Source: Escherichia phage phiAPCEc03
Reading direction: 5' to 3' (one strand)
Sequence record: NC_047754.1
DNA: 64,000 bases
The position numbers were made by a program, and so were the translations under genes. The notes under the pieces were generated by a model. The model ran no database searches. It saw only the letters and a list, made by a program, of their open reading frames with translations, and was not told where the DNA came from. Positions 1 to 43,286 of the stretch are shown in pieces (positions within the stretch are counted from its first letter, which is position 1; the number at the start of each line of letters is the position of its first letter).

Positions 1-74
1 TAAGCCCTGTGTTTCCTGGAGAGCGCAGGGCTTTTCTGTATAATGTATTTATACAACTAACTAGGGGATCAAAT

Positions 75-593
75 ATGACTGTTGATGAACTAACAGAACA
101 TCTCTTATCTAGAGGGTTTGATACAGATAAATATCATTGCTGGTTAAGCCCGGAAGGATGGCTAACAGTCCCATTGTATGATTTCTCTGGGATGTTGAGA
201 GGTTACCAGACTTATAATCCTTCTGCTCCAAAAGGACATGGTAAATCTCCTTTTGAAGCTAAGTATTTTACTTATTCTACTACACAGTGTGTATGGGGGC
301 TGGAAACTCTCAATGGAGATGAAAAAGTAGTATTGGTTGCTGAATCTGTATTTAAGGCAGTTGCGTTACATAATGCTGGTTATACAGCCCTGGCAATGTT
401 GGGTTCTTCTCCAGGAAAAGCGCTATTAAAGCAATTGAAATTACTACCTTTTAAATTGGTAGCTGTCGGGGATAATGATCCTGCGGGTGAAAAATTTGCT
501 AGAAAATTAAACGGCTTTGTTTCTCCTGTAGACGTAGATGAGATGTCTACCGAAAACTTGAAAAATTTTCTTGCTATGAAGCTAAATTTCTAA
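75..593 (+). CDS. Toprim-domain protein (primase-like fold)
   Basis: ORF with GGGG-type RBS before ATG at 75; conserved Glu in VLVAES and DxD motif in VGDNDPAG typical of Toprim domains; ORF frame is open from 9 but 75 has the better RBS. Confidence 0.45.
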   Translation: MTVDELTEHLLSRGFDTDKYHCWLSPEGWLTVPLYDFSGMLRGYQTYNPSAPKGHGKSPFEAKYFTYSTTQCVWGLETLNGDEKVVLVAESVFKAVALHNAGYTALAMLGSSPGKALLKQLKLLPFKLVAVGDNDPAGEKFARKLNGFVSPVDVDEMSTENLKNFLAMKLNF

Positions 594-613
594 TATAATA
601 TATTTATAAATTC

Positions 614-702
614 GGAAGAATAGCATAACGGTATTGCAGCAGATTGCTAATCTGTCGGTTTGAAATATAGCCTTGTGGGTTCGATTCCCACTTCTTCCGC
701 CA
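614..702 (+). tRNA. tRNA-Ser (anticodon GCU), long variable arm, CCA encoded
   Basis: 7-bp acceptor stem GGAAGAA/TTCTTCC, anticodon loop TTGCTAA, T-loop GGTTCGATTCC, 3-prime GCCA. Confidence 0.8.
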
Positions 703-708
703 AATTCT

Positions 709-786
709 GGTTCTCAAGCTCATATGGTATGAGCACCCGGCTCATAACCGGAAGGTACGTAGGTTCGAATCCTCGGGGAGCCACCA
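709..786 (+). tRNA. tRNA-Met/Ile2-type (anticodon CAU)
   Basis: Acceptor GGTTCTC/GGGAGCC pairs with two G-U; D-arm GCTC-ATATGGTAT-GAGC; anticodon loop CTCATAA; T-stem only 3 bp, so moderate confidence. Confidence 0.55.
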
Positions 787-807
787 TCTTGATTAGAGAG
801 GTTACAA

Positions 808-996
808 GTGGAACTATACCTAGTTTGTGTTGTGTTTATTCCAGATAGGGAATACCCGGATGAATATAAAAAAGGATATAGGTTAGCTAGGGCTATCTCT
901 GAAGCTCAGGCTATGGATAAAGTGGCAGATTATATGATTATGGTAGAAAACGTACACTATATCGACTCCCTTGAAGCCTCAAAAGTAATTGAATAA
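808..996 (+). CDS. hypothetical protein (GTG start)
   Basis: 62-aa ORF with AGAGAGG RBS upstream of GTG. Confidence 0.35.
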   Translation: MELYLVCVVFIPDREYPDEYKKGYRLARAISEAQAMDKVADYMIMVENVHYIDSLEASKVIE

Positions 997-1005
997 GGAA
1001 ACTAT

Positions 1006-1191
1006 ATGTCTAAGTTTCAAGAACTCAAGCAAGAGCTAGAAGAATGTGTCTGTCCTGACTGTCTAGGAGTTGGGGAAGCCTCTGATGCAGAAGCAGGAGA
1101 TACTTTTTGCAATATCTGGGTTTGTCCTACATGCAAAGGCACAGGCATTAATCCTACCTGTGGTATTTCTCTAGATATTGAAAGAGGATAA
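1006..1191 (+). CDS. small zinc-ribbon protein
   Basis: 61-aa ORF with two CxxC pairs (CPDC, CPTC). Confidence 0.5.
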   Translation: MSKFQELKQELEECVCPDCLGVGEASDAEAGDTFCNIWVCPTCKGTGINPTCGISLDIERG

Positions 1192-1291
1192 TACCTGTGA
1201 AACTAAAAGATTATTATATTGGTTGGTTTGTGGGACTAGTAGTAGGATTTTCACTAGGCTATAATATGTATCAACTAATAAACTGATTACA

Positions 1292-1369
1292 TGGGGGTGT
1301 AATCGAATTGGCATACATACCGTCCTTAAAATTCAGGTTTTGAGGGTTCGAATCCCTTGTCACGCACCA
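1292..1369 (+). pseudogene. degenerate tRNA-like element (no pairing acceptor stem)
   Basis: Canonical T-arm GAGGG-TTCGAAT-CCCTT and 3-prime ACCA; D-arm segment AATCGAATTGGC shared with the tRNA at 1482; no complementary 5-prime acceptor strand found. Confidence 0.3.
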
Positions 1370-1379
1370 AATTTGATGG

Positions 1380-1445
1380 TCAGAGTAAACTAAACCTACT
1401 ATCTCGGTTGAGCTGTTTTAATGGGTTCGAATCCCAGCGAGGCGT
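1380..1445 (+). pseudogene. degenerate tRNA-like element
   Basis: T-arm TGGG-TTCGAAT-CCCA present but no acceptor stem and no CCA. Confidence 0.25.
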
Positions 1446-1481
1446 AACTGCCTGGTGTGATAGAGGCATCATCTTATTATT

Positions 1482-1572
1482 GGAAGAGCAAATCGAATTG
1501 GCGACGAAAACCGCTTGGAAAGTGGCTGACTGGTAAAACGGCTTGAGAGTTCAAATCTCTCCTCTTCCGCCA
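1482..1572 (+). tRNA. class II tRNA, probably tRNA-Ser (anticodon GGA)
   Basis: Perfect acceptor GGAAGAG/CTCTTCC, perfect T-arm GAGAG-TTCAAAT-CTCTC, CCA encoded; anticodon loop TTGGAAA; D-arm and variable arm parse imperfectly. Confidence 0.55.
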
Positions 1573-1579
1573 AACAAAT

Positions 1580-1669
1580 GGAAGGTAGGGCGTAGTGGTA
1601 CGCAACTAGTCTTGAAAACTAGCCCGCTGTAGTGATACGGTGATGGTTCGACTCCATTACCTTCCTCCA
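1580..1669 (+). tRNA. tRNA-Ser (anticodon UGA), long variable arm
   Basis: Acceptor GGAAGGT/ACCTTCC, anticodon stem CTAGT/ACTAG with loop CTTGAAA, T-loop GGTTCGACTCC, CCA encoded. Confidence 0.85.
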
Positions 1670-1687
1670 ACTTATAAGGAAAACCTT

Positions 1688-1891
1688 ATGAAACATATTG
1701 TTAAGTATACTGAAAGTGAACGTGGGTGGGGCGGTGAAATCTGGTATCGTGGCTTTGATTCTGAAGAAGAAGCTAGAGCTGAGGTTCATGATACTAATAA
1801 AAATCTGCCAAAAGATCATGTACCAGACTACTATATTCAGGCTAAGTATGACGGTGTTAAAGATAAGGTTCCTGAAGGCTATAAGTTTTAA
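1688..1891 (+). CDS. hypothetical protein
   Basis: ORF starting MKHIVKY with AAGGAAA RBS; the upstream part of the listed ORF overlaps the tRNA. Confidence 0.5.
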   Translation: MKHIVKYTESERGWGGEIWYRGFDSEEEARAEVHDTNKNLPKDHVPDYYIQAKYDGVKDKVPEGYKF

Positions 1892-1899
1892 ATAATTCT

Positions 1900-2030
1900 T
1901 GGAATATGCCGGAATTGGTAGACGGGACTGCCGAATAGGTTTACTAGGAACATCCACTCCTAGAAATATACCTTAAAAGCGGTTGAGTTAAATGGTCTAA
2001 CTCATGAAGGTTCAAGTCCTTCTATTCCTT
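1900..2030 (+). ncRNA. tRNA-like structured element (oversized, about 130 nt)
   Basis: D-loop-like AATTGGTAGA near the 5-prime end, perfect T-arm GAAGG-TTCAAGT-CCTTC near the 3-prime end, acceptor-like pairing GGAATA/TATTCC, but 80 nt of extra sequence with two hairpins in between and no CCA. Confidence 0.3.
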
Positions 2031-2259
2031 GATACATCAATGGCTCAAAGTGTAACGGTGCTATTTGATGCTCTTGGAAAGACTTTCCCGACAGGCGTTC
2101 GGGGGTAAGCTTCTGAGGCTAGAATAGAAGAGTTTCTGAGAGCCGCCACAATTGAAAATTCGTACTCGTCTTGAGCTGCGTGCAATAGGGGATAACTTGA
2201 TTAGTATTCTAGAACATGCTAATTGAGGATGGTTTCGCTAACCCTGCGAGTTTTCAATT

Positions 2260-2336
2260 GTGGCTATATCATAATTGGTTAATGATCCTGATTGTGAATC
2301 AGGCCTATGTGGATTCGAATTCCACTAGCCACCCCA
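2260..2336 (+). tRNA. tRNA-His (anticodon GUG)
   Basis: Acceptor GTGGCTA/TAGCCAC, D-arm TCAT-AATTGGTTA-ATGA, anticodon arm CCTGA-TTGTGAA-TCAGG, T-arm GTGGA-TTCGAAT-TCCAC, CCA encoded. Confidence 0.85.
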
Positions 2337-2361
2337 AATTAATTTAAATAGGAAATAAAAT

Positions 2362-2535
2362 ATGGCTGATTTCTGCAAACAATGCTCCATTGATATGTGG
2401 GGCAGAGATACTGGTGACTTAGCTGGTCTGATTACAGAAGCCGAAGTCAAAGAAGGTTATGGTGCAGTTGTGGTTTGCGAAGGATGCGGAGTCATTCGAG
2501 TAGATCATGAAGGTAAGCGCCTTGAAGAAGGTTAG
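2362..2535 (+). CDS. small zinc-ribbon protein (57 aa)
   Basis: ORF MADFCKQCS...CEGCG with two CxxC pairs; below the 60-aa cutoff of the ORF track. Confidence 0.4.
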   Translation: MADFCKQCSIDMWGRDTGDLAGLITEAEVKEGYGAVVVCEGCGVIRVDHEGKRLEEG

Positions 2536-2601
2536 CCAAGTCGGTTAAGGCTGGGGTCTCTGAAATCCTGATCAGTGGTTCAAATCCACTACCTTCTGCC
2601 A
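2526..2601 (+). tRNA. tRNA-Gln (anticodon CUG)
   Basis: Acceptor AGAAGGT/ACCTTCT, anticodon loop CTCTGAA, T-arm AGTGG-TTCAAAT-CCACT, CCA encoded. Confidence 0.7.
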
Positions 2602-2606
2602 AACAA

Positions 2607-2684
2607 TTGGGATTAGCTTAGCTTGGCCTAAAGCTTCGGCCTTTGAAGTCGAGATCATTGGTTCAAATCCAATATCCCCTGCCA
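2607..2684 (+). tRNA. tRNA-Gln (anticodon UUG), imperfect acceptor stem
   Basis: Anticodon arm TCGGC-CTTTGAA-GTCGA, T-arm ATTGG-TTCAAAT-CCAAT, CCA encoded; only 5 of 7 acceptor pairs form. Confidence 0.5.
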
Positions 2685-2691
2685 AATAATC

Positions 2692-2767
2692 GCGGTTAAG
2701 CACACGGGTTGTGTCGCAGGCCTTCCAAGCCTCGCTGAGTAGGGTTCGATTCCCTCTAGCCGCTCCA
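2692..2767 (+). tRNA. tRNA-Gly (anticodon UCC), tentative
   Basis: Acceptor GCGGTTA/TAGCCGC with one G-U, anticodon loop CTTCCAA, T-loop GGGTTCGATTCCC, CCA encoded. Confidence 0.6.
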
Positions 2768-2783
2768 ACTTTAAGGGAACACT

Positions 2784-3035
2784 ATGCACGTTTTTGAGTT
2801 TCGTAATAAAAGTACTGATAAGCGAGTTATCATTATTGGAGAAACATATCGAGCATATGAACAAACTGACGGCTCTGTTATCTTGAATGATGAGAAAGGA
2901 GGTTTTAGCTTTTATCCAGAAGAACCTTATGAAGAGTTTCGAAAACAATTTAACCTAGACTGGAGAAAGCATTTAAACACTGTTGCTCCATCTGTAGTAT
3001 TGCCAACTACCAGTACTGTACCCTCTAATGGCTGA
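2784..3035 (+). CDS. hypothetical protein
   Basis: 83-aa ORF with GGGAAC RBS-like sequence. Confidence 0.5.
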   Translation: MHVFEFRNKSTDKRVIIIGETYRAYEQTDGSVILNDEKGGFSFYPEEPYEEFRKQFNLDWRKHLNTVAPSVVLPTTSTVPSNG

Positions 3036-3192
3036 CAACCTAAAAGTAAAGATTGATAAACAAAAGAAACGTGTAGAAGTAGAGATTGGCGAAGAACGTG
3101 TTGCCTTTACTTTCGAGTTTCTTCAGCAGTTGGCTATGACAGTTATGACTGATAAGTCTCCTGTTATTGAAAAAGAAATCCCGTTGAAATAA
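3028..3192 (+). CDS. hypothetical small protein (54 aa)
   Basis: ATG overlaps the previous stop; ORF MADNLKVKIDKQ ends immediately before the next tRNA. Confidence 0.35.
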   Translation: MADNLKVKIDKQKKRVEVEIGEERVAFTFEFLQQLAMTVMTDKSPVIEKEIPLK

Positions 3193-3200
3193 CGGGTTCT

Positions 3201-3287
3201 GCTGGGTTGGCAGAATGGTTGAATGCACCTGATTTGTAATCAGGAGGAGTAATCCCGTTGCAGGTTCGAATCCTGTGCCCAGCACCA
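3201..3287 (+). tRNA. tRNA with anticodon UGU (Thr by anticodon) and an atypical long variable region
   Basis: Acceptor GCTGGGT/GCCCAGC, perfect anticodon arm CCTGA-TTTGTAA-TCAGG, T-arm GCAGG-TTCGAAT-CCTGT, CCA encoded; 15-nt variable region is unusual for Thr. Confidence 0.55.
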
Positions 3288-3301
3288 ATTTAAGGACTAT
3301 T

Positions 3302-3469
3302 ATGTTTAAACTGTTAGTAGTTATCTGGTATAGTCAATCAAATAGAGCGAATACCTCCCACGTTATAGACTTTAATACTAAAAATGAAGCTGAAAAAGCA
3401 TATGCTAATTTAATAGAACGCAATAAAGAATCTCGTAGTATAGTTTATGAAGTGACTAAACTTTATTAA
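3302..3469 (+). CDS. hypothetical protein
   Basis: ORF MFKLLVVIWY with AAGGA RBS; upstream part of the listed ORF overlaps the tRNA. Confidence 0.45.
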   Translation: MFKLLVVIWYSQSNRANTSHVIDFNTKNEAEKAYANLIERNKESRSIVYEVTKLY

Positions 3470-3477
3470 AAATTCAT

Positions 3478-3530
3478 TTGCTTTCTCTCTTATATTCTTG
3501 TTATAATATTTATATAAATTAATGAGAGGG
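3478..3530 (+). promoter_or_regulatory. T5-type early sigma70 promoter
   Basis: -35 TTGCTT, 18-bp spacer, -10 TATAAT, then conserved TATAAATTAATGAGAGGG box before the ATG at 3538. Confidence 0.6.
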
Positions 3531-3537
3531 AAACCAA

Positions 3538-3831
3538 ATGAAACGTTATCTTTCTGTTGTGTTCCAAACTGGTGGTCAACGCTATACCTATGAATTTCCT
3601 AGCTCTTGGAAGATCAAAGAAGGTGATCAAGTTGTTGTGTTAACACCGCGTGATGGGTACAAGGTAGTAACGGTTAAGCAAGTCTTCACAAAAGATTATG
3701 AACCGTCTAAGTCTATTAACTATAAGATGATTCATGGTGTAGTTCGTCAAGTACCACGAGCGGAAGTCGAAATCAAAGTAGATAAAGATGGTAAACTTAA
3801 ATATACCTCTTGCTTAGACGAGTTGCTATAA
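3538..3831 (+). CDS. hypothetical protein
   Basis: 97-aa ORF downstream of the promoter. Confidence 0.6.
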   Translation: MKRYLSVVFQTGGQRYTYEFPSSWKIKEGDQVVVLTPRDGYKVVTVKQVFTKDYEPSKSINYKMIHGVVRQVPRAEVEIKVDKDGKLKYTSCLDELL

Positions 3832-4037
3832 TGAGGATTACTTTCACAGAAAAGATCATGAGTAACGGTGTTATGATCATTACCGCATGGGATGGTAATC
3901 AGTGGTGTAGTGTTTCAGGTATTAAGCCTGAAGAACAAACACTAGAAAATATCTCAAAGATTAAGCGAAGAATGGCAGAACGTGCACGACTTCCAGGTGC
4001 ACCTAGAAATGGCAAACGTTCTGCTGTAAAATGTTAA
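3831..4037 (+). CDS. hypothetical protein
   Basis: ORF MRITFTEK; start overlaps the upstream stop (TAATG). Confidence 0.45.
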   Translation: MRITFTEKIMSNGVMIITAWDGNQWCSVSGIKPEEQTLENISKIKRRMAERARLPGAPRNGKRSAVKC

Positions 4038-4038
4038 T

Positions 4039-4115
4039 GCTTCGGTAGCTTAGCGATCTAAAGCACTCGGCTGATAACCGAGAGATCGGGGGTTTAAATC
4101 CCTCCCGGAGTACCA
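4039..4115 (+). tRNA. tRNA-Ile (anticodon GAU)
   Basis: Acceptor GCTTCGG/CCGGAGT with G-U pairs, perfect anticodon arm CTCGG-CTGATAA-CCGAG, T-arm GGGGG-TTTAAAT-CCCTC, CCA encoded. Confidence 0.8.
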
Positions 4116-4211
4116 AATTTAGGAATTAAGACTATGCGTCCAGGAAAGTTTAAAAAAGCTAATTGGTCTAAAGAGTATAAAGAATACTTACTTAGTCTAA
4201 TAAAACATAAT

Positions 4212-4287
4212 AGTTAGTTGGCAGAGTGGTTATGCACCTCCTTCATACGGAGCGACTACAGTGGTTCAAATCCACTACTAACTACCA
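4212..4287 (+). tRNA. tRNA-Met/Ile2-type (anticodon CAU)
   Basis: Acceptor AGTTAGT/ACTAACT, anticodon loop TTCATAC, T-arm AGTGG-TTCAAAT-CCACT, CCA encoded. Confidence 0.7.
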
Positions 4288-4324
4288 TTAAAAGAGCTAG
4301 AGATAGCTAAATATAGGAGCAATT

Positions 4325-4519
4325 ATGTTAACAGTTAAAATAATGTCCACTGATGGTGGTGAGCAGATTCATGTTGGTAAAAGCGTAGGGTTTAATCCCA
4401 GAAATAAAAGCATAGCTATTTCTGGAATAGATCAAGCAATCTTCTTAAAAGAAGATGAAGTAGCATACGTTATGAACCAAACTGGTAAGACAGTTTCTGT
4501 ATATCGTGGTAAACTATAA
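4325..4519 (+). CDS. hypothetical protein
   Basis: 64-aa ORF with GGAG RBS. Confidence 0.5.
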   Translation: MLTVKIMSTDGGEQIHVGKSVGFNPRNKSIAISGIDQAIFLKEDEVAYVMNQTGKTVSVYRGKL

Positions 4520-4561
4520 AGAATAAAGAGCTGAGCCAATTTCTAACATCGTGGAGATCTA

Positions 4562-4930
4562 ATGAAAGCATATCAAAATCTTAAATCTGGCGTAATTAAC
4601 CTTGTTCATGAAAATCAGATTATTCAGCTATACTCCGACAACGGCGAACTTAAGCAGAAAGTTCTAGTTGAAGATCTAGAAGGTATCACACCACAATTCG
4701 ATCCCGAAGCCTTCCGTGAGGTCAAAGTGGAAGTCGCCCCTCAAATCGAAGGTGGTCAACACCTAAACGTCAATGTGTTAAGCCGTGATCAGCTTTTGGA
4801 TGCGCAGAAACATCCTGAAAAATACCCTCAGTTGACCATCCGTGTCTCTGGCTACGCTGTTCGATTTAATGCACTGACTCGTGAACAACAGAACGACGTT
4901 ATTAGTCGTACATTTACTCAGGCGATGTAA
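4562..4930 (+). CDS. hypothetical protein
   Basis: 122-aa ORF with GGAGA RBS. Confidence 0.55.
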
Positions 4931-5011
4931 TGGGGTTTGGATACGATTTCTCCCAGCTACGCAAGGTAGTCGAGCAAACTCCGTTTATCTCCCAAGTTTT
5001 AGGAGAAATGT

Positions 5012-5326
5012 GTGGATCGAGCATTAAGACGTCATCACCGGCAACGTGTGAAGAACAACCGCAAGAAGTACTGGACAGCCTTTCCACATGAAGAAAGCCC
5101 TAAGCGGTTAGGTATTATCACTACTACTCCTTGCATCTGTTCTTGTTGGATGTGTGGTAACCCTCGCAAGTACTATAAGAATAGTAAAGCAGGCATGAAG
5201 ACCTCGGAGATCAGGAAAATGGAAGCGATGATTATGGGCATCTCAAATGATGAATTTGATGGCTTTGTAGGGTTCGGAGAAGGAATCAGCTCAGGCTGTT
5301 TCGAAGATGAACGCCCCGATCTGTAA
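5012..5326 (+). CDS. hypothetical basic protein with Cys cluster (GTG start)
   Basis: AGGAG RBS 6 nt before GTG; arginine-rich N-terminus and CxCxC/CxxC cysteines. Confidence 0.45.
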   Translation: MDRALRRHHRQRVKNNRKKYWTAFPHEESPKRLGIITTTPCICSCWMCGNPRKYYKNSKAGMKTSEIRKMEAMIMGISNDEFDGFVGFGEGISSGCFEDERPDL

Positions 5327-5447
5327 TTAATAACAAACCCCAGCTATTGAATAAGTAGTCTGTGGTTTTTCTGTATACAGGAAAATAGTTTATGTATAAT
5401 AAAATTCATCCACATTAGGTTAATTTAAAAGACTTAATGGAGGTAAT

Positions 5448-5795
5448 ATGAGCCGTACTTATCGTAGACAATCTGGTGATCAGTGGTGGAAGTCTAAAGA
5501 ACAATTCTCTCAAGAATATTCTTTCCTCAAAGAAAATGGCTACTGGATTCGTGTTATTTATGCCAAATCCTGGGACGACATCAAAAAAGAAATGAAGGAA
5601 GCAACCATTCGTAATGAGAAAAAGGATGGTTATAACTGGAATTCCATTAGTAAGAATGTTAAGTGGCACTCTAATAAAATGGTTCGTCAAGGGAATCGTC
5701 AAGAACTTCACCGCGTGATGAAAGATCCAGAAAATTACGACTATAATCGCGATCATGACATGCGTAAGCGTGGGTTATGGTGGTGCTATGACTAA
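5448..5795 (+). CDS. hypothetical protein
   Basis: 115-aa ORF with GGAGG RBS. Confidence 0.6.
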   Translation: MSRTYRRQSGDQWWKSKEQFSQEYSFLKENGYWIRVIYAKSWDDIKKEMKEATIRNEKKDGYNWNSISKNVKWHSNKMVRQGNRQELHRVMKDPENYDYNRDHDMRKRGLWWCYD

Positions 5796-5812
5796 ATTCT
5801 GAAATAATTCAT

Positions 5813-5865
5813 TTGCTAAACCTCTCTTTTCTTGCTATAATATATTTATAAATTGATGAGAGAGG
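5813..5865 (+). promoter_or_regulatory. T5-type early sigma70 promoter
   Basis: -35 TTGCTA, 17-bp spacer, -10 TATAAT, then ATAAATTGATGAGAGAGG box. Confidence 0.6.
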
Positions 5866-5871
5866 TTTGAA

Positions 5872-6153
5872 ATGAAAAATCGCCTAGACTGTGCCATTCA
5901 TGTTCTTGAACATGATGTTGCGGGAACCTGTATGTCTTACCACGAAGCAGGTCGTTTAATTAAAGAACGTGTGGCAGATGTGTGCGGATTGAAGATTACT
6001 GCTGAGGAAGCGGATGATCTTTTAGGTCAAGCACTGGAGAAAACCGAAATGTTCCTCTGCGATTCTTGTTCTTGGTGGTGTGAAGCTCACGAACGTTCTT
6101 TCAACGATTATGATGTATGTCGTGATTGTAGTGGGGAGGATGAAGATGAATAA
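5872..6153 (+). CDS. hypothetical Cys-rich protein
   Basis: 93-aa ORF downstream of the promoter; CDSCSWWC and CRDCS motifs. Confidence 0.55.
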   Translation: MKNRLDCAIHVLEHDVAGTCMSYHEAGRLIKERVADVCGLKITAEEADDLLGQALEKTEMFLCDSCSWWCEAHERSFNDYDVCRDCSGEDEDE

Positions 6154-6442
6154 GTTTATTATTGCACTGATGATCTCCGCAGTTAGTTTCGGTTCTCTGG
6201 CGTCTACCAAAGTTTCTATGAAAAATGGTAATGTTAAAGTCCAACAGAGCGGCATTATTACCGAGTATGGTAAAGTTCGTGATGTTAAAGAACGTAATGG
6301 TAAGGTAGAAATCTATACTAATAAAAACTTCTCTACTCCAGCCGTTACTATTAGCAAACGCGGTGAAATAACCACTCAACGTACTAATAGCTCCAGTTCT
6401 TTTACTTGTCGTTATGATTGCGACTTTGAAGGAGAAGAGTAA
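6146..6442 (+). CDS. secreted protein with signal peptide
   Basis: GGAGGA RBS; N-terminus MNKFIIALMISAVSFGSLAS is signal-peptide-like. Confidence 0.5.
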   Translation: MNKFIIALMISAVSFGSLASTKVSMKNGNVKVQQSGIITEYGKVRDVKERNGKVEIYTNKNFSTPAVTISKRGEITTQRTNSSSSFTCRYDCDFEGEE

Positions 6443-9810: not shown

Positions 9811-10392
9811 ATGACTAATAAAAAAGAAGAAAAGACTAACCTGTTTCACTCCATTCGCCAATCTAACGAGTATACCTTTTTCTTTGATGAAGAACTCGGT
9901 CCGCCGGATGAATACCGTGATTTAGCAATGGTACTTATGCAGGCAAATGAGGACGATGAAATTAATCTGATGATTAATGGTCCGGGTGGTTATGTTGATA
10001 CTGCTGCACAGTTATCTAACTTAATTGCTAATTGCCGTGGAACAGTTATAGGGCATCTGATTGGTCCTAGTGCTTCTGCTTACTGCACAATTTTCCTATC
10101 TTGTCATGGATGGGTAGTACATCCACATGCTACGCTAATGGGACACACGTTCTCTGGCGGGTTCTGTGAGAAGGGTCAAGAAATTAAGAAAGCCTATGAA
10201 TCTTACAACAAGTTCGTAGAAGATATGATGCTAGATGTCTACTATCCATTCTTCTCAATAGATGAAATAGACGAGATGGTAAAAGACAACAAAAATATCT
10301 ATCTAGATAGCAAGGAAATCCATAAGCGTATTGAAATCTTGGCAAAATATCGATCTGAGCAATATAATAAAGCCCAGTTACCTCAATTCTAG
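9811..10392 (+). CDS. ClpP-like serine peptidase
   Basis: INGPGG motif, Ser in GPSASAY and His in GHTFSGG spaced as in ClpP. Confidence 0.5.
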   Translation: MTNKKEEKTNLFHSIRQSNEYTFFFDEELGPPDEYRDLAMVLMQANEDDEINLMINGPGGYVDTAAQLSNLIANCRGTVIGHLIGPSASAYCTIFLSCHGWVVHPHATLMGHTFSGGFCEKGQEIKKAYESYNKFVEDMMLDVYYPFFSIDEIDEMVKDNKNIYLDSKEIHKRIEILAKYRSEQYNKAQLPQF

Positions 10393-18091: not shown

Positions 18092-18549
18092 CAGCACTAC
18101 AACAACTACAGAATTACTGGTTTGATAACCAATTTAACGATCTTTTCATCCAGTTGTTTGTCGAAACGAACGGACGCTTCAACTACCGATTCTTTAACAA
18201 GTTTCACGAAACAAAATTCTCGCATACAGAAATTAATGCAGCGATCCAAGACCTAACTGGTTCTAAAGTAGTTCAATATCGTGAAGTAGACTTTACACCA
18301 GAGTGTTTTGGGTTTGAATTATTTAAGAAAGCATATAAATTTGGTAAGTTTGAGGATGCTCGTCAATGGGTTCACGATTTTTGGTATAACACCGATATTG
18401 TTCCTAGTCGCGTGCTGATTCTTAACTGGATTGCTAAGCAACATCCACCTAAAACGCAATCATCCTTCTTACCGACTGACACAGGAAACCTCTACCATGA
18501 CAGAAAAGAAAAATCCATTATTGGAGCAGATGAAGGAGTGGGAGAGTAA
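18088..18549 (+). CDS. hypothetical protein
   Basis: 153-aa ORF; ATGA overlap with the upstream gene. Confidence 0.55.
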   Translation: MTALQQLQNYWFDNQFNDLFIQLFVETNGRFNYRFFNKFHETKFSHTEINAAIQDLTGSKVVQYREVDFTPECFGFELFKKAYKFGKFEDARQWVHDFWYNTDIVPSRVLILNWIAKQHPPKTQSSFLPTDTGNLYHDRKEKSIIGADEGVGE

Positions 18550-24130: not shown

Positions 24131-24343
24131 TCATAGTACCCCACGAAACGCAGCGTAAAAGGTGGCAAAGTGTTTAACTGTTTCAGCGATCACGTTGCCG
24201 CGCTTGTCAAATTTTTTCTCGGTAACACGAAAGGCATTTTTGTTACGTGCTACATATTCGATTTTACAATCTTCCCGCTCGAACGTGTTAACATCCACCA
24301 GCTTAAAGCCTTTCGAACGTGCAAGAGAAACGTTGCGGATCAT
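24131..24343 (-). CDS. hypothetical basic protein
   Basis: 70-aa ORF. Confidence 0.5.
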   Translation of the reverse strand: MIRNVSLARSKGFKLVDVNTFEREDCKIEYVARNKNAFRVTEKKFDKRGNVIAETVKHFATFYAAFRGVL

Positions 24344-28557: not shown

Positions 28558-30228
28558 ATGATTATTTCCGCAGAAAAACAAACCGTTATCCTGAAAATGG
28601 CCGCTGACTTTAATTTCTATGGTAAACGTCTGCGCGCTACTAAACTGGAAGTCTGCGACGATATATCAAAAGCGGTCTACGATACAACGAAGCATTCAAC
28701 CGCTATCTGCGACTGGCTGGAAGCAAATAAACCAGCTAAACCGAAAGCGGCAAAAGTAGCAAAAGCCATTAAAAACGATGAGCGCCCAGAAGCGGCGGGG
28801 ATTGTTTCTAGTACGGTTGAGCAATGGGAAGTAAAACAGGGTAAACGCTTTATTATTACGTCGATTCAGAATAATACTTTCCCACATAAAAACTTTTTAG
28901 CAAGTCTGGAAAAATTCGCTGAATATATCGGTGCTGATTTGCTTGTTTCTAAGTATATTTATAATAAAAACGGCTTCCAGAATGGAGAAGGTGCAGACGG
29001 TATCAAATACGATCCCGCATTTGATAAATATATTTGCAGCAAAAACGTGTTTTTAAATAACCGCCGTTTTGCTTTCATGGCTGAAATTAATGTTTTGCCT
29101 ACCGCAGACTATCCGCTTTCAGGATTTGCAGAAACTGCAACGGCTTTAAATATTGAAGGGCTGGCAATTGGTCACGCTAAAATTACCGCTGAAAGCGTGC
29201 CAGCTTTAAAAGGTGAAGTAGTGCGCCGTATGTATTCAACCGGAACGGCAACGCTCAAAAACTACATTCAGCAGAAAGCAGGACAAAAAGCCGAGGCGCT
29301 GCATAACTTCGGTGCGCTTATAGTTGAGTTCGACGACGACGGGGAATTTTTTGTTCGCCAGCTTGAAACAATGGACGAAAGCGGGGTGTTTTATGATCTG
29401 AACGTTTGCGCTACTCCTGCCGGATGCTATGAGACATCGGGGCATGTTTTAGGCTTGCAGTATGGCGATATTCACGCCGAAAAATTAGATGAGGAGTGCG
29501 CCGCCGCATCTTGGGGGCATGGTGATACTTATGGGCTAGTAGATATTCTTAAACCAAAATATCAGTTTGTGCATGACGTTCACGATTTTACATCCCGCAA
29601 TCATCATAACCGCGCATCCGGTGTATTCCTAGCTAAACAATACGCCGCCGGACGTGATAAAGTTCTGGATGATCTTATCGATACGGGGCGCGTGCTGGAA
29701 TCAATGGAACGTGATTTTAGTCAAACAATCATTGTTGAATCTAATCACGATTTGGCGCTATCCCGTTGGCTTGATGATCGTAATGCTAACATCAAAGACG
29801 ATCCAGCAAACGCCGAGTTATATCACCGCCTGAATGCTGCAATTTACGCGGCAATCGGTGAACACGACGAAACGTTTAACGTGCTAGATTATGCGTTGCG
29901 CAAGGTTGCAGGTTGTGAATTTAACGCCATTTTCCTGACCACTGATCAATCTTTCAAGATTGCAGGCATTGAATGCGGCGTACACGGTCACAATGGCATT
30001 AACGGCAGTCGTGGCAATCCTAAACAATTTAAAAAATTGGGCAAGTTAAACACGGGGCATACCCATACCGCCAGCATTTATGGCGGCGTATATACCGCTG
30101 GCGTTGCTGGTAGTCTGGATATGGGTTACAACGTTGGCGCGTCAAGCTGGACGCAAACGCATTTAATTACCTATGCAAATGGTCAACGCACTTTGATTGA
30201 CTTTAAAAACGGTAAATTCTTTGCATAA
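28558..30228 (+). CDS. A1: A1-like pre-early protein, metallophosphoesterase-family nuclease
   Basis: 556 aa; calcineurin-like motifs GDIH, SNHD, GVHGHNG and GHTHT in canonical order; size matches T5 A1. Confidence 0.7.
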   Translation: MIISAEKQTVILKMAADFNFYGKRLRATKLEVCDDISKAVYDTTKHSTAICDWLEANKPAKPKAAKVAKAIKNDERPEAAGIVSSTVEQWEVKQGKRFIITSIQNNTFPHKNFLASLEKFAEYIGADLLVSKYIYNKNGFQNGEGADGIKYDPAFDKYICSKNVFLNNRRFAFMAEINVLPTADYPLSGFAETATALNIEGLAIGHAKITAESVPALKGEVVRRMYSTGTATLKNYIQQKAGQKAEALHNFGALIVEFDDDGEFFVRQLETMDESGVFYDLNVCATPAGCYETSGHVLGLQYGDIHAEKLDEECAAASWGHGDTYGLVDILKPKYQFVHDVHDFTSRNHHNRASGVFLAKQYAAGRDKVLDDLIDTGRVLESMERDFSQTIIVESNHDLALSRWLDDRNANIKDDPANAELYHRLNAAIYAAIGEHDETFNVLDYALRKVAGCEFNAIFLTTDQSFKIAGIECGVHGHNGINGSRGNPKQFKKLGKLNTGHTHTASIYGGVYTAGVAGSLDMGYNVGASSWTQTHLITYANGQRTLIDFKNGKFFA

Positions 30229-30973: not shown

Positions 30974-31053
30974 TAGTTAATTTATTATTACCCGCTTATA
31001 AATAGCGGGTAATGCTGAAATAACTAAATCCCTTTAATGGAGAACGTAACAAA

Positions 31054-31788
31054 ATGAATCAAGTTAAAACGAATATTACCCGTAATTTCCCGCATATTTC
31101 CCGCGTCATGATTTGGGATCTGGACGGCACTATCATTAATTCTTTCCATCGTGTAGCGCTTTGCTTTGATAGTGAGGGCAATTTAGATTTAAATAAGTAT
31201 AAAAATGAAGCCTGCAAACATCATTTAATAATGCAAGATACTTTATTGCCATTAGTTGAATACATGCGCCAGTGCATGAATGACGCAAATACTTTAAACA
31301 TTATTTGCACCGCTCGACTAATGAGCAAGTCGGACTATTATTATTTGCGCAAACAAGGCTTGCGCGGTCGTGGTAATAGTAATATCCGCGTGTTTTCCCG
31401 TGATACACTGCATAAATATTTTGAGGCTGATAAAGTTAGCGAAATATACCACAGCAAGGACGCAGTATATAAATCTTATTATTTTGAATTATTCAAACAA
31501 CTATACCCAAACGCTGATTTTACAATGATTGACGATCATAAAGGCGTACTATCAGCGGCGGCATCATACGGATTTAAAACGCTGGACGCGCAAGCCGTTA
31601 ACGATATTCTATCAATCGGCGTGACATTGATAGGTGAAACCTTTATTGATGAATCCCTCGATGATGATAATGATTATCAATTCCTAGCTGACCGTTTAAA
31701 ATTATGCTGGGAAGGTATGACCGAGGAAGAACGCGCAGAATATAGTTGCAGCCCGCAACAATATATTGAGAAATTAAAAGTTGCGTAA
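31054..31788 (+). CDS. dmp: HAD-family 5-prime-deoxyribonucleotidase
   Basis: 244 aa with HAD motif I (WDLDGTI) near the N-terminus; size and position match T5 dmp. Confidence 0.6.
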   Translation: MNQVKTNITRNFPHISRVMIWDLDGTIINSFHRVALCFDSEGNLDLNKYKNEACKHHLIMQDTLLPLVEYMRQCMNDANTLNIICTARLMSKSDYYYLRKQGLRGRGNSNIRVFSRDTLHKYFEADKVSEIYHSKDAVYKSYYFELFKQLYPNADFTMIDDHKGVLSAAASYGFKTLDAQAVNDILSIGVTLIGETFIDESLDDDNDYQFLADRLKLCWEGMTEEERAEYSCSPQQYIEKLKVA

Positions 31789-39434: not shown

Positions 39435-40067
39435 ATGACACAAGCTGCTATTGACTATAACAAGTTAAAATCAGCACACGTTCATTTAGATGCCTATATT
39501 AAATCTATTGATAGCGAATCCAAAGAGGGCGTTGTAAAAATCCGTGGATTCGCTAATACAATTAGTAAAGATCGCGCTGGTGATGTAATTCCTGCTTCTG
39601 CGTGGAAAACATCTAATGCACTTACTAACTATATGAAAAACCCGATTATTCTTTTCGGACACGATCATCGTCGTCCAATCGGTAAGTGTATTGATCTTAA
39701 CCCTACTGAAATGGGTCTCGAAATCGAATGCGAGATCTATGAAAGTTCTGACCCGGCTATCTTTTCACTAATTAAAAACGGTGTACTGAAAACTTTTAGT
39801 ATCGGATTCCGCTGCCTAGATGCAGAGTGGGATGAAGCTACTGATATATTTATTATTAAAGATTTAGAACTATACGAAGTTTCGGTAGTTTCTGTACCTT
39901 GTAATCAGGACTCAACGTTCAATCTCGCTAAGAGCATGAATGGTCATGATTATACTGAATGGCGTAAATCTTTTACTGCAATAAGTTCTAAAGCTGTCCC
40001 AGCTCAAGAACGTAATCTTTCTGAACTAGAAAAACTTGCGATAGCTTTAGGCTACGTTAAAGAATAA
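39435..40067 (+). CDS. prohead protease (HK97-type)
   Basis: 210 aa, immediately upstream of the major capsid gene. Confidence 0.7.
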   Translation: MTQAAIDYNKLKSAHVHLDAYIKSIDSESKEGVVKIRGFANTISKDRAGDVIPASAWKTSNALTNYMKNPIILFGHDHRRPIGKCIDLNPTEMGLEIECEIYESSDPAIFSLIKNGVLKTFSIGFRCLDAEWDEATDIFIIKDLELYEVSVVSVPCNQDSTFNLAKSMNGHDYTEWRKSFTAISSKAVPAQERNLSELEKLAIALGYVKE

Positions 40068-42800: not shown

Positions 42801-43286
42801 ATGGACCATAGAACAAGTATTGCACAAGCTATGGTTGACCGAATCTCTAAACAAATGGATGGTTCTCAACCTGACGAATATTTTAATAACCTATACGGAA
42901 ACGTTTCTCGTCAAACTTATAAATTTGAGGAAATACGAGAGTTTCCTTATGTGGCAGTTCATATCGGAACTGAAACTGGGCAGTATCTTCCTTCGGGCCA
43001 ACAGTGGATGTTTTTAGAACTTCCAATCCTGGTGTACGATAAAGAGAAAACAGACATTCAAGAGCAACTTGAAAAACTCGTAGCGGATATAAAAACCGTT
43101 ATTGACACAGGTGGAAATTTAGAATATACTGTTAGTAAACCTAATGGATCGACCTTCCCATGTGAGGCAACTGATATGATCATTACATCAGTTAGTACAG
43201 ATGAGGGTCTACTGGCCCCATATGGTTTAGCAGAAATAAATGTAACAGTGAGGTATCAGCCTCCACGTAGGTCACTTCGCAGATAA
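42801..43286 (+). CDS. tail terminator protein (p142-like, putative)
   Basis: 161 aa, immediately upstream of the tail tube gene. Confidence 0.45.
   Translation: MDHRTSIAQAMVDRISKQMDGSQPDEYFNNLYGNVSRQTYKFEEIREFPYVAVHIGTETGQYLPSGQQWMFLELPILVYDKEKTDIQEQLEKLVADIKTVIDTGGNLEYTVSKPNGSTFPCEATDMIITSVSTDEGLLAPYGLAEINVTVRYQPPRRSLRR

Follow-up and report, generated by a model that had tools for sequence, protein, structure and literature searches.

The transfer RNA (tRNA) genes of phage T5 have been on the genetic map since the 1970s. Non-decoding tRNA mimics are known from several systems: YrlA, the tRNA-like domain of transfer-messenger RNA (tmRNA) and the phage T4 stable RNAs called species 1 and 2 have an acceptor-like stem together with D and T arms, and the T4 RNAs also lie inside a phage tRNA cluster and have no known function. 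The curated T5 record (NC_005859) annotates tRNA genes T5t01 to T5t24 and, as miscellaneous RNAs (misc_RNAs), RNA1, RNAI, RNAIII, RNA2, RNA3, RNAIV and RNA2H. Natural or laboratory deletions in the T5 tRNA region have been described for T5Mos, T5 mutant 123 and Bas34 (PMC11464382; bioRxiv 10.64898/2026.07.10.737580). Here we analyse the cluster at positions 614-4287 of a 64,000-nucleotide (nt) stretch of Escherichia phage phiAPCEc03 (NC_047754.1), called the window below, to which all coordinates refer. A preliminary description of this DNA had read the cluster as eleven tRNA genes plus three further elements with T arms that were oversized or had no pairing acceptor stem, and had offered decaying duplicates, processing signals or noncanonical small RNAs as explanations of these three. 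We find that the region is the early-region tRNA gene cluster of a T5-like phage of the genus Tequintavirus; it is largely known biology, and tRNA-like stable RNAs already figure in the T5 RefSeq record. The three odd elements appear to have three origins, one being the stable RNA RNA1, one a smaller conserved tRNA-like RNA and one a recombination scar; we put the probability of this explanation as a whole, including the roles proposed below, at roughly 0.8.

A T5-type tRNA cluster with three odd elements

A megablast of positions 1-5400 against 50,697 phage records matched 515 of them, mainly Salmonella and Escherichia T5-like phages. The best relatives were 92-97% identical across ~70% of the query, and the relatives retrieved belong to the Demerecviridae, genus Tequintavirus. 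The T5 record, aligned gene by gene to the window, runs in reverse orientation; nucleotide identity was 84-97% across 32-800, 1482-1691, 1886-3199 and 4022-6438. Window 32-800 corresponds to the primase-like gene T5.076, tRNA-Ser3(GCU) and tRNA-Ile2(CAU); 1482-1691 to tRNA-Ser2(GGA) and tRNA-Ser1(UGA); 1886-2539 to RNA1, RNAI, RNAIII, tRNA-His and T5.062; 2524-3199 to tRNA-Gln(CUG), tRNA-Gln(UUG), tRNA-Gly(UCC) and two open reading frames (ORFs); and 4022-4287 to tRNA-Ile(GAU) and tRNA-Met. Gene order and strand are common to both phages, as is the set of three Ser, Ile2, His, two Gln, Gly, Ile and Met tRNAs with RNA1, RNAI and RNAIII. In this mapping, window 800-1482 and 3200-3465 had no T5 counterpart, and the homing endonucleases hegA, hegC and hegD of T5 are absent from the window.

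The reading as a tRNA cluster and its anticodon calls were correct: all eleven tRNAs are real, lie on the plus strand and carry an encoded CCA, as read from the sequence. We counted as canonical a tRNA scoring at least 29 bits on Rfam RF00005 with paired 7-base-pair (bp) acceptor and 5-bp anticodon stems. The preliminary description had named covariance-model scans as a possible refutation; these rejected the three odd elements as tRNAs, and the eleven tRNAs stand given T5 orthology. The three elements are all real, with two amendments: that given as 1380-1445 is only part of 1374-1471, and the RNAs at 2042-2258 had been overlooked. Each of the three contains the T-loop motif GGTTCRANTCC, of which there are 12 in the cluster and 17 in the whole window (4.4 expected by chance). 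The five matches outside the cluster were considered as further tRNA-like elements and rejected, being at chance level; the two on the plus strand resemble coding sequence.

RNA1 is a conserved tRNA mimic

The element at 1898-2041 (plus strand) is 95.1% identical over 144 nt to the T5 misc_RNA described as 'RNA1, tRNA-like stable RNA with unknown functions' (locus T5s03). The flanks are collinear, and RNA1 lies, as in T5, between the small ORF after tRNA-Ser(UGA) and RNA I. It was found in 491 phage records, with identity falling to 72% in Klebsiella Sugarlandvirus, and spans the Demerecviridae lineages Tequintavirus, Epseptimavirus and Sugarlandvirus.

A secondary structure was written by hand on an alignment of 32 distinct variants; it is, to the knowledge of the author of the analysis, the first explicit model backed by covariation. 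The acceptor (1901-1906/2023-2028) has 6 bp, with U.U at 1:72 in 28 of the 32 variants, and is followed by a tRNA-Leu-like D arm (stem 1909-1911/1923-1925) and a 5-bp equivalent of the anticodon stem (1927-1931/1979-1983). Above the latter stand a 4-bp middle helix (1937-1940/1970-1973) and a distal hairpin (1941-1949/1958-1966) whose loop, ACAUCCAC at 1950-1957, is identical in 31 of 32 variants, T5 having ACAUCCGC. A 7-bp variable arm (1984-1990/1998-2004) and a T arm (2006-2010/2018-2022) complete the model, in which 94.2% of cells were paired as against 39-50% in controls with the pairing partners slid. Compensatory pairs numbered 13 (1-3 when slid), and the covariation score was 0.296 (≤0.08 when slid); within the insert, 5 of 12 pairs covary. 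RNAalifold independently gave the same helices except the D arm, where it found another local pairing. The preliminary suggestion of a decaying duplicate does not suit this element, since conservation across Demerecviridae with compensatory changes is the opposite of decay.

RNA1 is not a canonical tRNA. RF00005 matched it only in part (1962-2030, 23.9 bits), and the anticodon loop is replaced by a structured segment of ~47 nt (1932-1978), which ARAGORN counts as a 40-nt insert. RNA1 also has no CCA, unlike all eleven cluster tRNAs, the hybrid described below and RNA I. The 'anticodon' stretch varies by lineage (CCUUAAAA, CCCGAAAAC, CUCAUAAAG, CUCGACGG), with readings at the anticodon site of UUAAAA, CGAAAAC, CAUAAAG and CGACGG. 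Taken together, the alignments argue that RNA1 is a structured non-decoding tRNA mimic, a probable tRNA-Leu descendant that has kept the L-shaped body and has a two-helix extension for an anticodon loop.

Could the element instead be a genuine tRNA-Leu(UAA) from which a 40-nt intron is removed to give a decoding tRNA? ARAGORN in intron mode (-i) at its default score calls tRNA-Leu(taa) with an insert at position 33, i(33,40), phage JLBYU40 carries the annotation of a 134-nt tRNA-Leu(taa), the D arm is closely Leu-like, and the phage over-uses UUA. Yet the anticodon varies, the Klebsiella-phage orthologue being called 'Phe(aaa)' by ARAGORN and Ser in other records, and the conserved loop and covarying pairs show structural selection on the insert, unlike a spliced-out spacer. 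The missing CCA and the U.U at 1:72 also tell against it, as does the T5 curators' annotation, which has a stable RNA of 144 nt, unspliced. Rfam returned neither Intron_gpI nor any other intron family at E ≤ 10, and 40 nt is too short for a group I intron; the intron-bearing tRNA-Leu(UAA) of cyanobacteria and plastids shares with RNA1 a Leu-like body, an insertion in the anticodon loop and, in the window copy, the UAA triplet, but its insert is a group I intron of more than 200 nt, whereas RNA1 has no group I fold by Rfam. We know, moreover, of no protein-dependent tRNA splicing pathway in E. coli. On three grounds, the variable anticodon, the lack of CCA and the structural selection acting on the insert, we reject an intron-bearing tRNA-Leu as highly improbable.

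The non-decoding mimic resembles in design YrlA, tmRNA and the T4 RNAs, with which the window's tRNA-like RNAs share the tRNA elbow and the replacement of the anticodon arm by another module; the T4 likeness is one of description only. RNA1 differs in having neither CCA nor the alanine-identity pair G3.U70. No Y RNA or YrlA family was matched in Rfam up to E = 10 in 500-4500; ARAGORN found no tmRNA, and the tmRNA matches of Rfam were T-loop fragments of 9.9-16.4 bits, as against a gathering score of 47.

Three further observations concern RNA1. In Klebsiella Sugarlandvirus (loci L005:6299-6452 and L013-L015:2486-2639) the acceptor is apparently ~13 bp long with one mismatch and wholly different in sequence, while the distal loop is still ACAUCCAC. 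To look for RNA1 outside the Demerecviridae, IMG/VR was scanned for its pattern; this gave 85 loci, of which nhmmer kept 24, nearly all on T5-sized contigs of isolate genomes; the rest were chance matches. Finally, the loop 8-mer (GTGGATGT/ACATCCAC) occurs five times in the window (1950-1957, 10119-10126, 18441-18448, 24291-24298 and 43004-43011), where 1.35 were expected, and none of 100 shuffles reached five. Four of these sites are ACATCCAC on the plus strand, three of them inside plus-strand ORFs, and only 43004 is the complement, also inside a plus-strand ORF; with four of five sites in the same sense as the loop, we drew no conclusion about targets.

A probable second, smaller tRNA-like RNA at 1374-1471

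The element at 1374-1471 (plus strand) occurs in 247 records, those of Klebsiella, Erwinia and Eos phages among them, and hardly any of these annotate it. Conservation is at least 95% in ~190 T5-like records and, for the 3' two-thirds, 81-88% in Erwinia phage KEY, Klebsiella phages and phage Eos; the lineages concerned are Tequintavirus, Sugarlandvirus-type Klebsiella phages, KEY and Eos. Its start, in the four aligned lineages, lies a few bases past the CCA with which the tRNA before it (Leu-UAG or Ala) ends; a tRNA-Ser follows closely on its end in the window and in the Klebsiella phage. Comparison with NC_005859 showed that T5 does not have it: the homing endonuclease gene hegC occupies its site (window 1370-1481 compared with T5 31022-31606).

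RNAalifold gave a consensus with a closing stem, UGAUG.UC/GA..CAUCA (1374-1378 and 1380-1381 with 1463-1464 and 1467-1471), a T-arm-like hairpin (1422-1425/1433-1436; UGGG/CCCA, CAGG/CCUG, CGGG/CCCG) and an extra hairpin (1437-1444/1449-1456; AGGC/GCCU, GGGC/GCCC), both hairpins covarying. It includes neither a D arm nor a CCA, and the only match was a 15-nt T-loop fragment (tmRNA model, 10.9 bits). Pairs were formed in 99.1% of cases, as against 24-49% when slid, and four were compensatory (0-1 when slid). In T5, RNA2 shares this design, its fold being made up of a closing stem, a T arm and non-standard arms, and RNA3 forms a closing stem with two hairpins. The element is thus not a decaying duplicate, as had been suggested, because it is conserved in several lineages with compensatory changes; it is probably a second, smaller tRNA-like RNA of the general kind of RNA1, under structural selection in part. 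The term noncanonical small RNA accordingly fits two of the three odd elements, 1898-2041 and 1374-1471.

A permuted tRNA, with 1437-1456 as a closed acceptor followed by a D arm, was also considered; we set it aside, since its D stem fails to pair in the Klebsiella, Erwinia and Eos phages and the long-range stem UGAUG/CAUCA is invariant. The IMG/VR pattern scan for 1374-1471 returned 19 loci, nearly all on T5-sized contigs of isolate genomes.

A hybrid tRNA-Leu marks a deletion

The third element, at 1293-1369 (plus strand), is a hybrid pseudo-tRNA-Leu. It was aligned to the 74-nt tRNA-Leu(UAA) of NBSal003, to the tRNA-Leu(UAG) of JLBYU40 and to both loci of IrisVonRoten (Bas32). Segments 1293-1305 and 1329-1337 are of tRNA-Leu(UAA) type, and 1316-1325 and 1343-1369 of tRNA-Leu(UAG) type; the upstream flank through 1305 follows the Leu-UAA locus, and the sequence from 1343 into the downstream flank follows the Leu-UAG locus. 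The two acceptor strands (GGGGGUG, GUCACGC) come from different genes, as do the two anticodon-stem strands (CCGUC, UUCAG), and neither stem pairs. There was no Rfam match at E ≤ 10 and no ARAGORN call even at -ps70, and the folding z-score was -0.37, no better than shuffled sequence. Over the segments that correspond, the hybrid has 91-94% identity with either parent and is young rather than decayed; what the preliminary description had taken for a possible decaying duplicate is a pseudogene made in one step from two different Leu genes.

Bas32 retains the undeleted order, with the two Leu genes 4.9 kb apart and tRNAs Tyr, Glu, Trp, Phe, Cys, Asn, Asp, Lys-CUU, Pro, Lys-UUU, Val and Ala between them. 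None of these 12 tRNAs was found by ARAGORN or Rfam anywhere in the window; compared with T5, the 12 tRNA genes between the Leu genes are gone and the hybrid stands in their place. We read 1293-1369, from these alignments, as the scar of a ~4.9-kb deletion by recombination between two tRNA-Leu genes. tRNA-Leu(UAA) recombined with tRNA-Leu(UAG) 4.9 kb downstream, deleting the 12 genes and inactivating both Leu genes, and the patchy mosaic at the joint is what heteroduplex mismatch repair would leave. The T5 deletion variants T5Mos, mutant 123 and Bas34 are similar in that non-essential, multi-kb deletions of the tRNA region removed many tRNA genes; in the window the end points are instead tRNA-Leu(UAA) and tRNA-Leu(UAG), and recombination of paralogous tRNAs with a mosaic hybrid is evident in the window sequence itself. 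The hybrid shows how tRNA arsenals can go in one step through recombination of paralogous tRNAs.

The junction has no known second occurrence: none of 361 matching phage records contained 1200-1480 in one piece, and IMG/VR had no exact match to it. That rarity would suit an assembly artefact in which two similar tRNA-Leu genes were collapsed and the 12 genes went missing on paper only, and the parental genes do have identical 10-nt and 5-nt blocks and the T loop in common. But the common identity is at most 27 nt and is broken by the four-segment mosaic, which a simple collapse of reads would not yield, and relatives are collinear with the remaining region. T5Mos, T5 mutant 123 and Bas34 are, besides, well-documented cases of deletion at just this place (PMC11464382; bioRxiv 10.64898/2026.07.10.737580), and we regard an artefact as improbable.

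The parental tRNA-Leu(UAA) genes have a peculiarity of their own. Those of NBSal003 and Bas32 (L004:2014-2087; L103:1429-1505) are 74-77 nt long with a short variable loop, a class I shape with a leucine anticodon and hence the mirror image of the long-arm tRNA-Thr described below.

Possible roles of the tRNA-like RNAs

We propose that RNA1 and 1374-1471 would be released by RNase P-type processing, helping to define the ends of neighbouring RNAs, and that the free tRNA mimics would bind a tRNA-recognising factor of host or phage. The suggestion that the odd elements are processing signals may hold as part of their role.

Whether processing is the whole of it is another matter. On that account RNA1 and 1374-1471 would act in cis only, as tRNA-shaped punctuation at which RNase P, RNase E or RNase Z is recruited to cleave the polycistronic early transcript, and would do nothing as free RNAs. 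Their positions would suit this, 1374-1471 starting 5 nt past the upstream CCA and ending 10 nt before tRNA-Ser(GGA), and RNA1 abutting the series RNA I, RNA III, tRNA-His; both also keep the acceptor/T-arm stack that RNase P recognises. A cleavage signal, however, needs neither the RNA1 loop ACAUCCAC nor the selected distal helices, which lie far from processing sites, T5 annotates RNA1 as a stable product, and ordinary tRNAs of the cluster already give such punctuation. We consider a purely cis-acting role rather unlikely.

Another account takes all three odd elements for functionless, decaying tRNA pseudogenes kept only through the relatedness of the phages. None of the three passes the tRNA detectors as a canonical tRNA, 1293-1369 folds no better than shuffled sequence, and 1374-1471 is dispensable, since T5 does without it. 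Against this, RNA1 and 1374-1471 align at 72-88% with Sugarlandvirus, Erwinia and Eos phages where the flanks do not, and their substitutions concentrate in compensatory pairs; the hybrid is indeed a pseudogene, yet a young one. General decay therefore has little to commend it, and we give it a small chance.

Several points weigh against the explanation that we prefer, in which RNA1 and 1374-1471 are tRNA mimics and the hybrid is a deletion scar. A mistake in assembly between similar tRNA genes is conceivable as the source of the hybrid junction. For RNA1, the status of stable RNA comes from the T5 record's annotation. Pair-count controls made by shuffling came out too high, the sequences being related, and the controls with slid partners given above are safer. 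The alignment of 1374-1471 comprises 11 distinct sequences from few lineages, and its closing stem never varies on both sides, so that it agrees with the model rather than being demonstrated. The function of both RNAs as tRNA mimics is our inference only.

A wider reading would join the nonstandard members of the cluster as adaptations to tRNA-targeting bacterial immunity instead of decoding. RNA1, and perhaps 1374-1471, would then be tRNA-Leu-derived decoys or sensors showing a conserved loop to a tRNA nuclease or tRNA-binding factor, and the extra arm of tRNA-Thr(UGU) would protect the anticodon stem against OLD and other TOPRIM tRNases. We think this joint reading doubtful. With the RNA1 model and 1374-1471 in hand, the forty-year-old question of what the tRNA-like RNAs of T-odd and T-even phages do becomes testable by loop and stem mutations.

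A tRNA-Thr(UGU) with a long variable arm

The UGU tRNA at 3201-3287 (plus strand; called by ARAGORN; Rfam 58.9 bits) is a tRNA-Thr with CCA and a long variable arm. Its variable region of 15 nt (A, GGA, GUAA, UCC, CGUU) forms a 3-bp stem (3246-3248/3253-3255) with a GUAA cap, and so differs from the 4-5-nt variable loop of class I architecture. To our knowledge all known bacterial tRNA-Thr have class I architecture, and bacterial class II tRNAs are otherwise limited to Leu, Ser, Tyr and Sec, a rule that the long-arm family breaks. The remaining features are a 3-bp D stem with G13.A22, A14, A15, G18G19, G1-C72, C2-G71, A73 and CCA. The resemblance to class II tRNAs thus lies in the 15-nt variable region with its 3-bp stem and in a D arm much like that of tRNA-Leu, and the differences in the UGU anticodon and in the pairs G1-C72 and C2-G71.

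At the same locus T5 and Bas32 have an unrelated, short tRNA-Thr of 75 nt, compared with 87 nt in the window, with no detectable similarity between the T5 and window genes; the long form occurs in ~100 T5-like records. The design also occurs in Aeromonas phage PX29 (Straboviridae) and in a Kyanoviridae phage, and an IMG/VR pattern scan found it in 33 contigs of widely varying sizes. Pooled, the family (loci L101:1501-1585, L102:1501-1586 and, from IMG/VR, L104-L132 besides that of the window) comprises no fewer than 21 distinct sequences, each of them called as tRNA-Thr(tgt), from three annotated families (Demerecviridae, Straboviridae and Kyanoviridae) and IMG/VR contigs. Over 21 sequences the cloverleaf was 97.3% paired, and all three pairs of the variable arm covary (GGA/UCC, GAG/CUC, AGG/CCU, GUG/CAC), under loops that are mostly GNRA. 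Comparison of 3201-3287 with E. coli genomes gave no match, and a limited full-text search found no paper mentioning a long-arm phage tRNA-Thr.

The acceptor pairs G1-C72 and C2-G71 are specific identity elements of E. coli tRNA-Thr. They are invariant in 21 of 21 sequences and, with the UGU anticodon (G35, U36), agree with threonine identity. Anticodon and acceptor pairs are the general rule of threonine identity (PMC9976931). P2 OLD cleaves the host tRNAs Thr(UGU), Gly(UCC), fMet, Val and Pro, and under OLD the Thr(UGU) tRNAs of T4, Bas32, Bas33 and HK446 restore plaquing strongly and that of T5 partly (bioRxiv 10.64898/2026.07.10.737580). HildyBeyeler, which is Bas33 (PMC11619597), has a 111-nt stretch identical to window 3190-3300, tRNA-Thr included. 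Because this identical tRNA rescues infection under OLD, the long-arm tRNA-Thr functions in vivo; unlike a Leu, Ser, Tyr or Sec tRNA, it replaces host tRNA-Thr(UGU). The rescue is indirect evidence that 3201-3287 would be charged with threonine and decode ACA and ACG. The variable arm is not required for OLD resistance, since the Bas32 tRNA is of the short form, and the text of the preprint does not mention the arm (bioRxiv 10.64898/2026.07.10.737580). The chief leucine determinants of E. coli, as listed in PMC9976931, are present in the long-arm tRNA-Thr too: A73, A14, A15-U48 and G18G19. A still bolder form of the immunity reading, judged from these positions, is that this tRNA could be dually charged, with threonine and leucine.

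The other tRNAs of the cluster

Run on the whole window at default settings, ARAGORN called eight tRNAs, all within 614-4287 on the plus strand; relaxing it (-ps80) gained two more, Met-cat at 709-786 and Gly-tcc at 2692-2767. RF00005 at its gathering score found ARAGORN's eight and the CAU tRNA (709-783, 40.3 bits). Besides tRNA-Thr, the default set consists of the class II tRNAs Ser(GCU) (614-702; Rfam 60.5 bits; orthologue of T5 tRNA-Ser3(GCU)) and Ser(UGA) (1580-1669; 33.1 bits; T5 tRNA-Ser1), His(GUG) (2260-2336), Gln(CUG) (2526-2601), Gln(UUG) (2607-2684; 46.1 bits), Ile(GAU) (4039-4115) and Met(CAU) (4212-4287), an elongator per the T5 annotation; from His to Met these also have Rfam and T5 support. 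The three Ser and two Gln tRNAs are isoacceptors with differing anticodons, and the term duplicates, under which they had been described, does not apply. In Gln-UUG, 1:72 and 2:71 are unpaired, both top pairs being flagged by Rfam. An unpaired 1:72 is normal for E. coli glutamine identity. In T5, hegD overlaps tRNA-Gln(CUG) (T5 29344-29419), which is flagged as a pseudogene; the window copy is intact.

The three remaining tRNAs are harder to detect. tRNA-Ser(GGA), at 1482-1572 on the plus strand, is the orthologue of T5 tRNA-Ser2(GGA) and falls under every threshold, scoring 19.7 bits on the tRNA-Sec model; its D region is noncanonical, with a 4-nt linker and no U8. About 30% of positions differ from the T5 copy, yet every stem is kept through compensatory changes: the acceptor is GGAAGAG/CUCUUCC (T5 GGAAAAG/CUUUUCC), the D stem UCG/CGA (T5 UAG/CUA) and the T stem GAGAG/CUCUC (T5 AUGGG/CCCAU). 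With Erwinia phage KEY added to the comparison, compensatory changes are seen in all stems, and the minimum-energy fold is the cloverleaf.

tRNA-Gly(UCC), at 2692-2767 on the plus strand, is 100% identical to T5 tRNA-Gly1(UCC). It had been said to parse cleanly, but standard detectors call it only at relaxed thresholds, which we attribute to its atypical D arm, a 5-bp stem with a 1-nt linker; there are compensatory changes relative to Sugarland. According to the T5 record, tRNA-Gly1(UCC) with a replaced anticodon is an effective amber suppressor (a remark that our analysis in one place attaches to Gln-UUG).

The CAU tRNA at 709-786 (plus strand), with an imperfect T stem, shows a compensatory change in the anticodon stem relative to T5. 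It is a tRNA, as proposed; the label Met given to it does not hold for T5, whose curators annotate tRNA-Ile2(CAU), and most other records have tRNA-Met. Against E. coli genomes its best match was tRNA-Arg, at 73-75% identity. AUA stands at 16.8 per thousand in the long ORFs of the window, ~4 times the E. coli value, which is consistent with Ile2. An Ile2 identity, with C34 converted to lysidine by TilS, charging by IleRS and reading of AUA, is a candidate assignment that follows the T5 annotation.

Codon usage and defence

The GC content of the window is 0.387, and its long ORFs use, per thousand codons, 15.0 ACA, 16.7 GGA and 18.7 CUA. The eleven intact tRNAs supply decoders for A/U-ending codons used 2-4 times more than in E. 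coli. CUA and UUA, the codons of the two destroyed Leu tRNAs, belong to those that the phage over-uses most. The intact tRNAs would also stand in for host tRNAs that defence nucleases have cut, as experiments have shown for close relatives.

The loss of tRNAs matters now that phage tRNAs are seen to decide sensitivity to PARIS, OLD and similar defences. T5 tRNA-Lys neutralises PARIS (PMC11464382); the window phage has lost tRNA-Lys and would be expected to be PARIS-sensitive. It has also lost Val and Pro, two of five OLD targets, and has no fMet gene, and it has kept Thr and Gly, which would leave it partly exposed to OLD.

RNA I, RNA III and neighbouring features

Directly after RNA1 lies RNA I (2042-2148, plus strand), with a tRNA-like terminus (GGCUC...GAGCC-G-CCA) and 97% identity to the T5 misc_RNA RNAI. 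It is followed by RNA III (2153-2258, plus strand), with a 12-bp terminal stem, a folding z-score of -2.72 and 99% identity to T5 RNAIII, which ends one base before the start of tRNA-His at 2260. In the T5 annotation the two are stable RNAs with no assigned function. RNase P cuts at the 5' ends of RNA I and tRNA-His would fix the 3' end of RNA1 exactly, and the same cut at tRNA-His would fix that of RNA III to within one base.

Immediately ahead of the first tRNA is a sigma-70 promoter-like site (TTGCTA-17-TATAAT; 571-599, plus strand). Its location corresponds to that of T5 promoter P15b, whose sequence overlaps the end of the primase-like gene. Sigma-70 promoters, this one among them, would drive rightward transcription of the tRNA genes and small ORFs on the plus strand, and host tRNA-processing enzymes (RNase P and other nucleases) would cut the co-transcripts into mature RNAs.

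At the left end, window 1-41 corresponds to T5 39728-39768, where T5 has a bidirectional terminator region, after which the match resumes at T5 37840; the T5 genes in between, T5.077-079, are absent from the window phage. Pfam searches of ten ORFs from 75 to 4930 gave nothing related to tRNA, only Toprim-like, weak zinc-finger, DUF7293 and glycyl-radical matches. Just upstream of the hybrid Leu gene, an ORF of 61 amino acids (aa) at 1006-1191 has two CxxC pairs (CPDCLGVG ... CPTCKGTG) and a weak Pfam match to Anti-TRAP (20.2 bits, under the cutoff), and relatives label it 'anti-termination protein Q-like'. Directly after the tRNA cluster, the 122-aa ORF at 4562-4930 matches Pfam Gly_radical (E = 3.7e-18); its product is a GrcA-like autonomous glycyl radical cofactor typical of T5-like phages.

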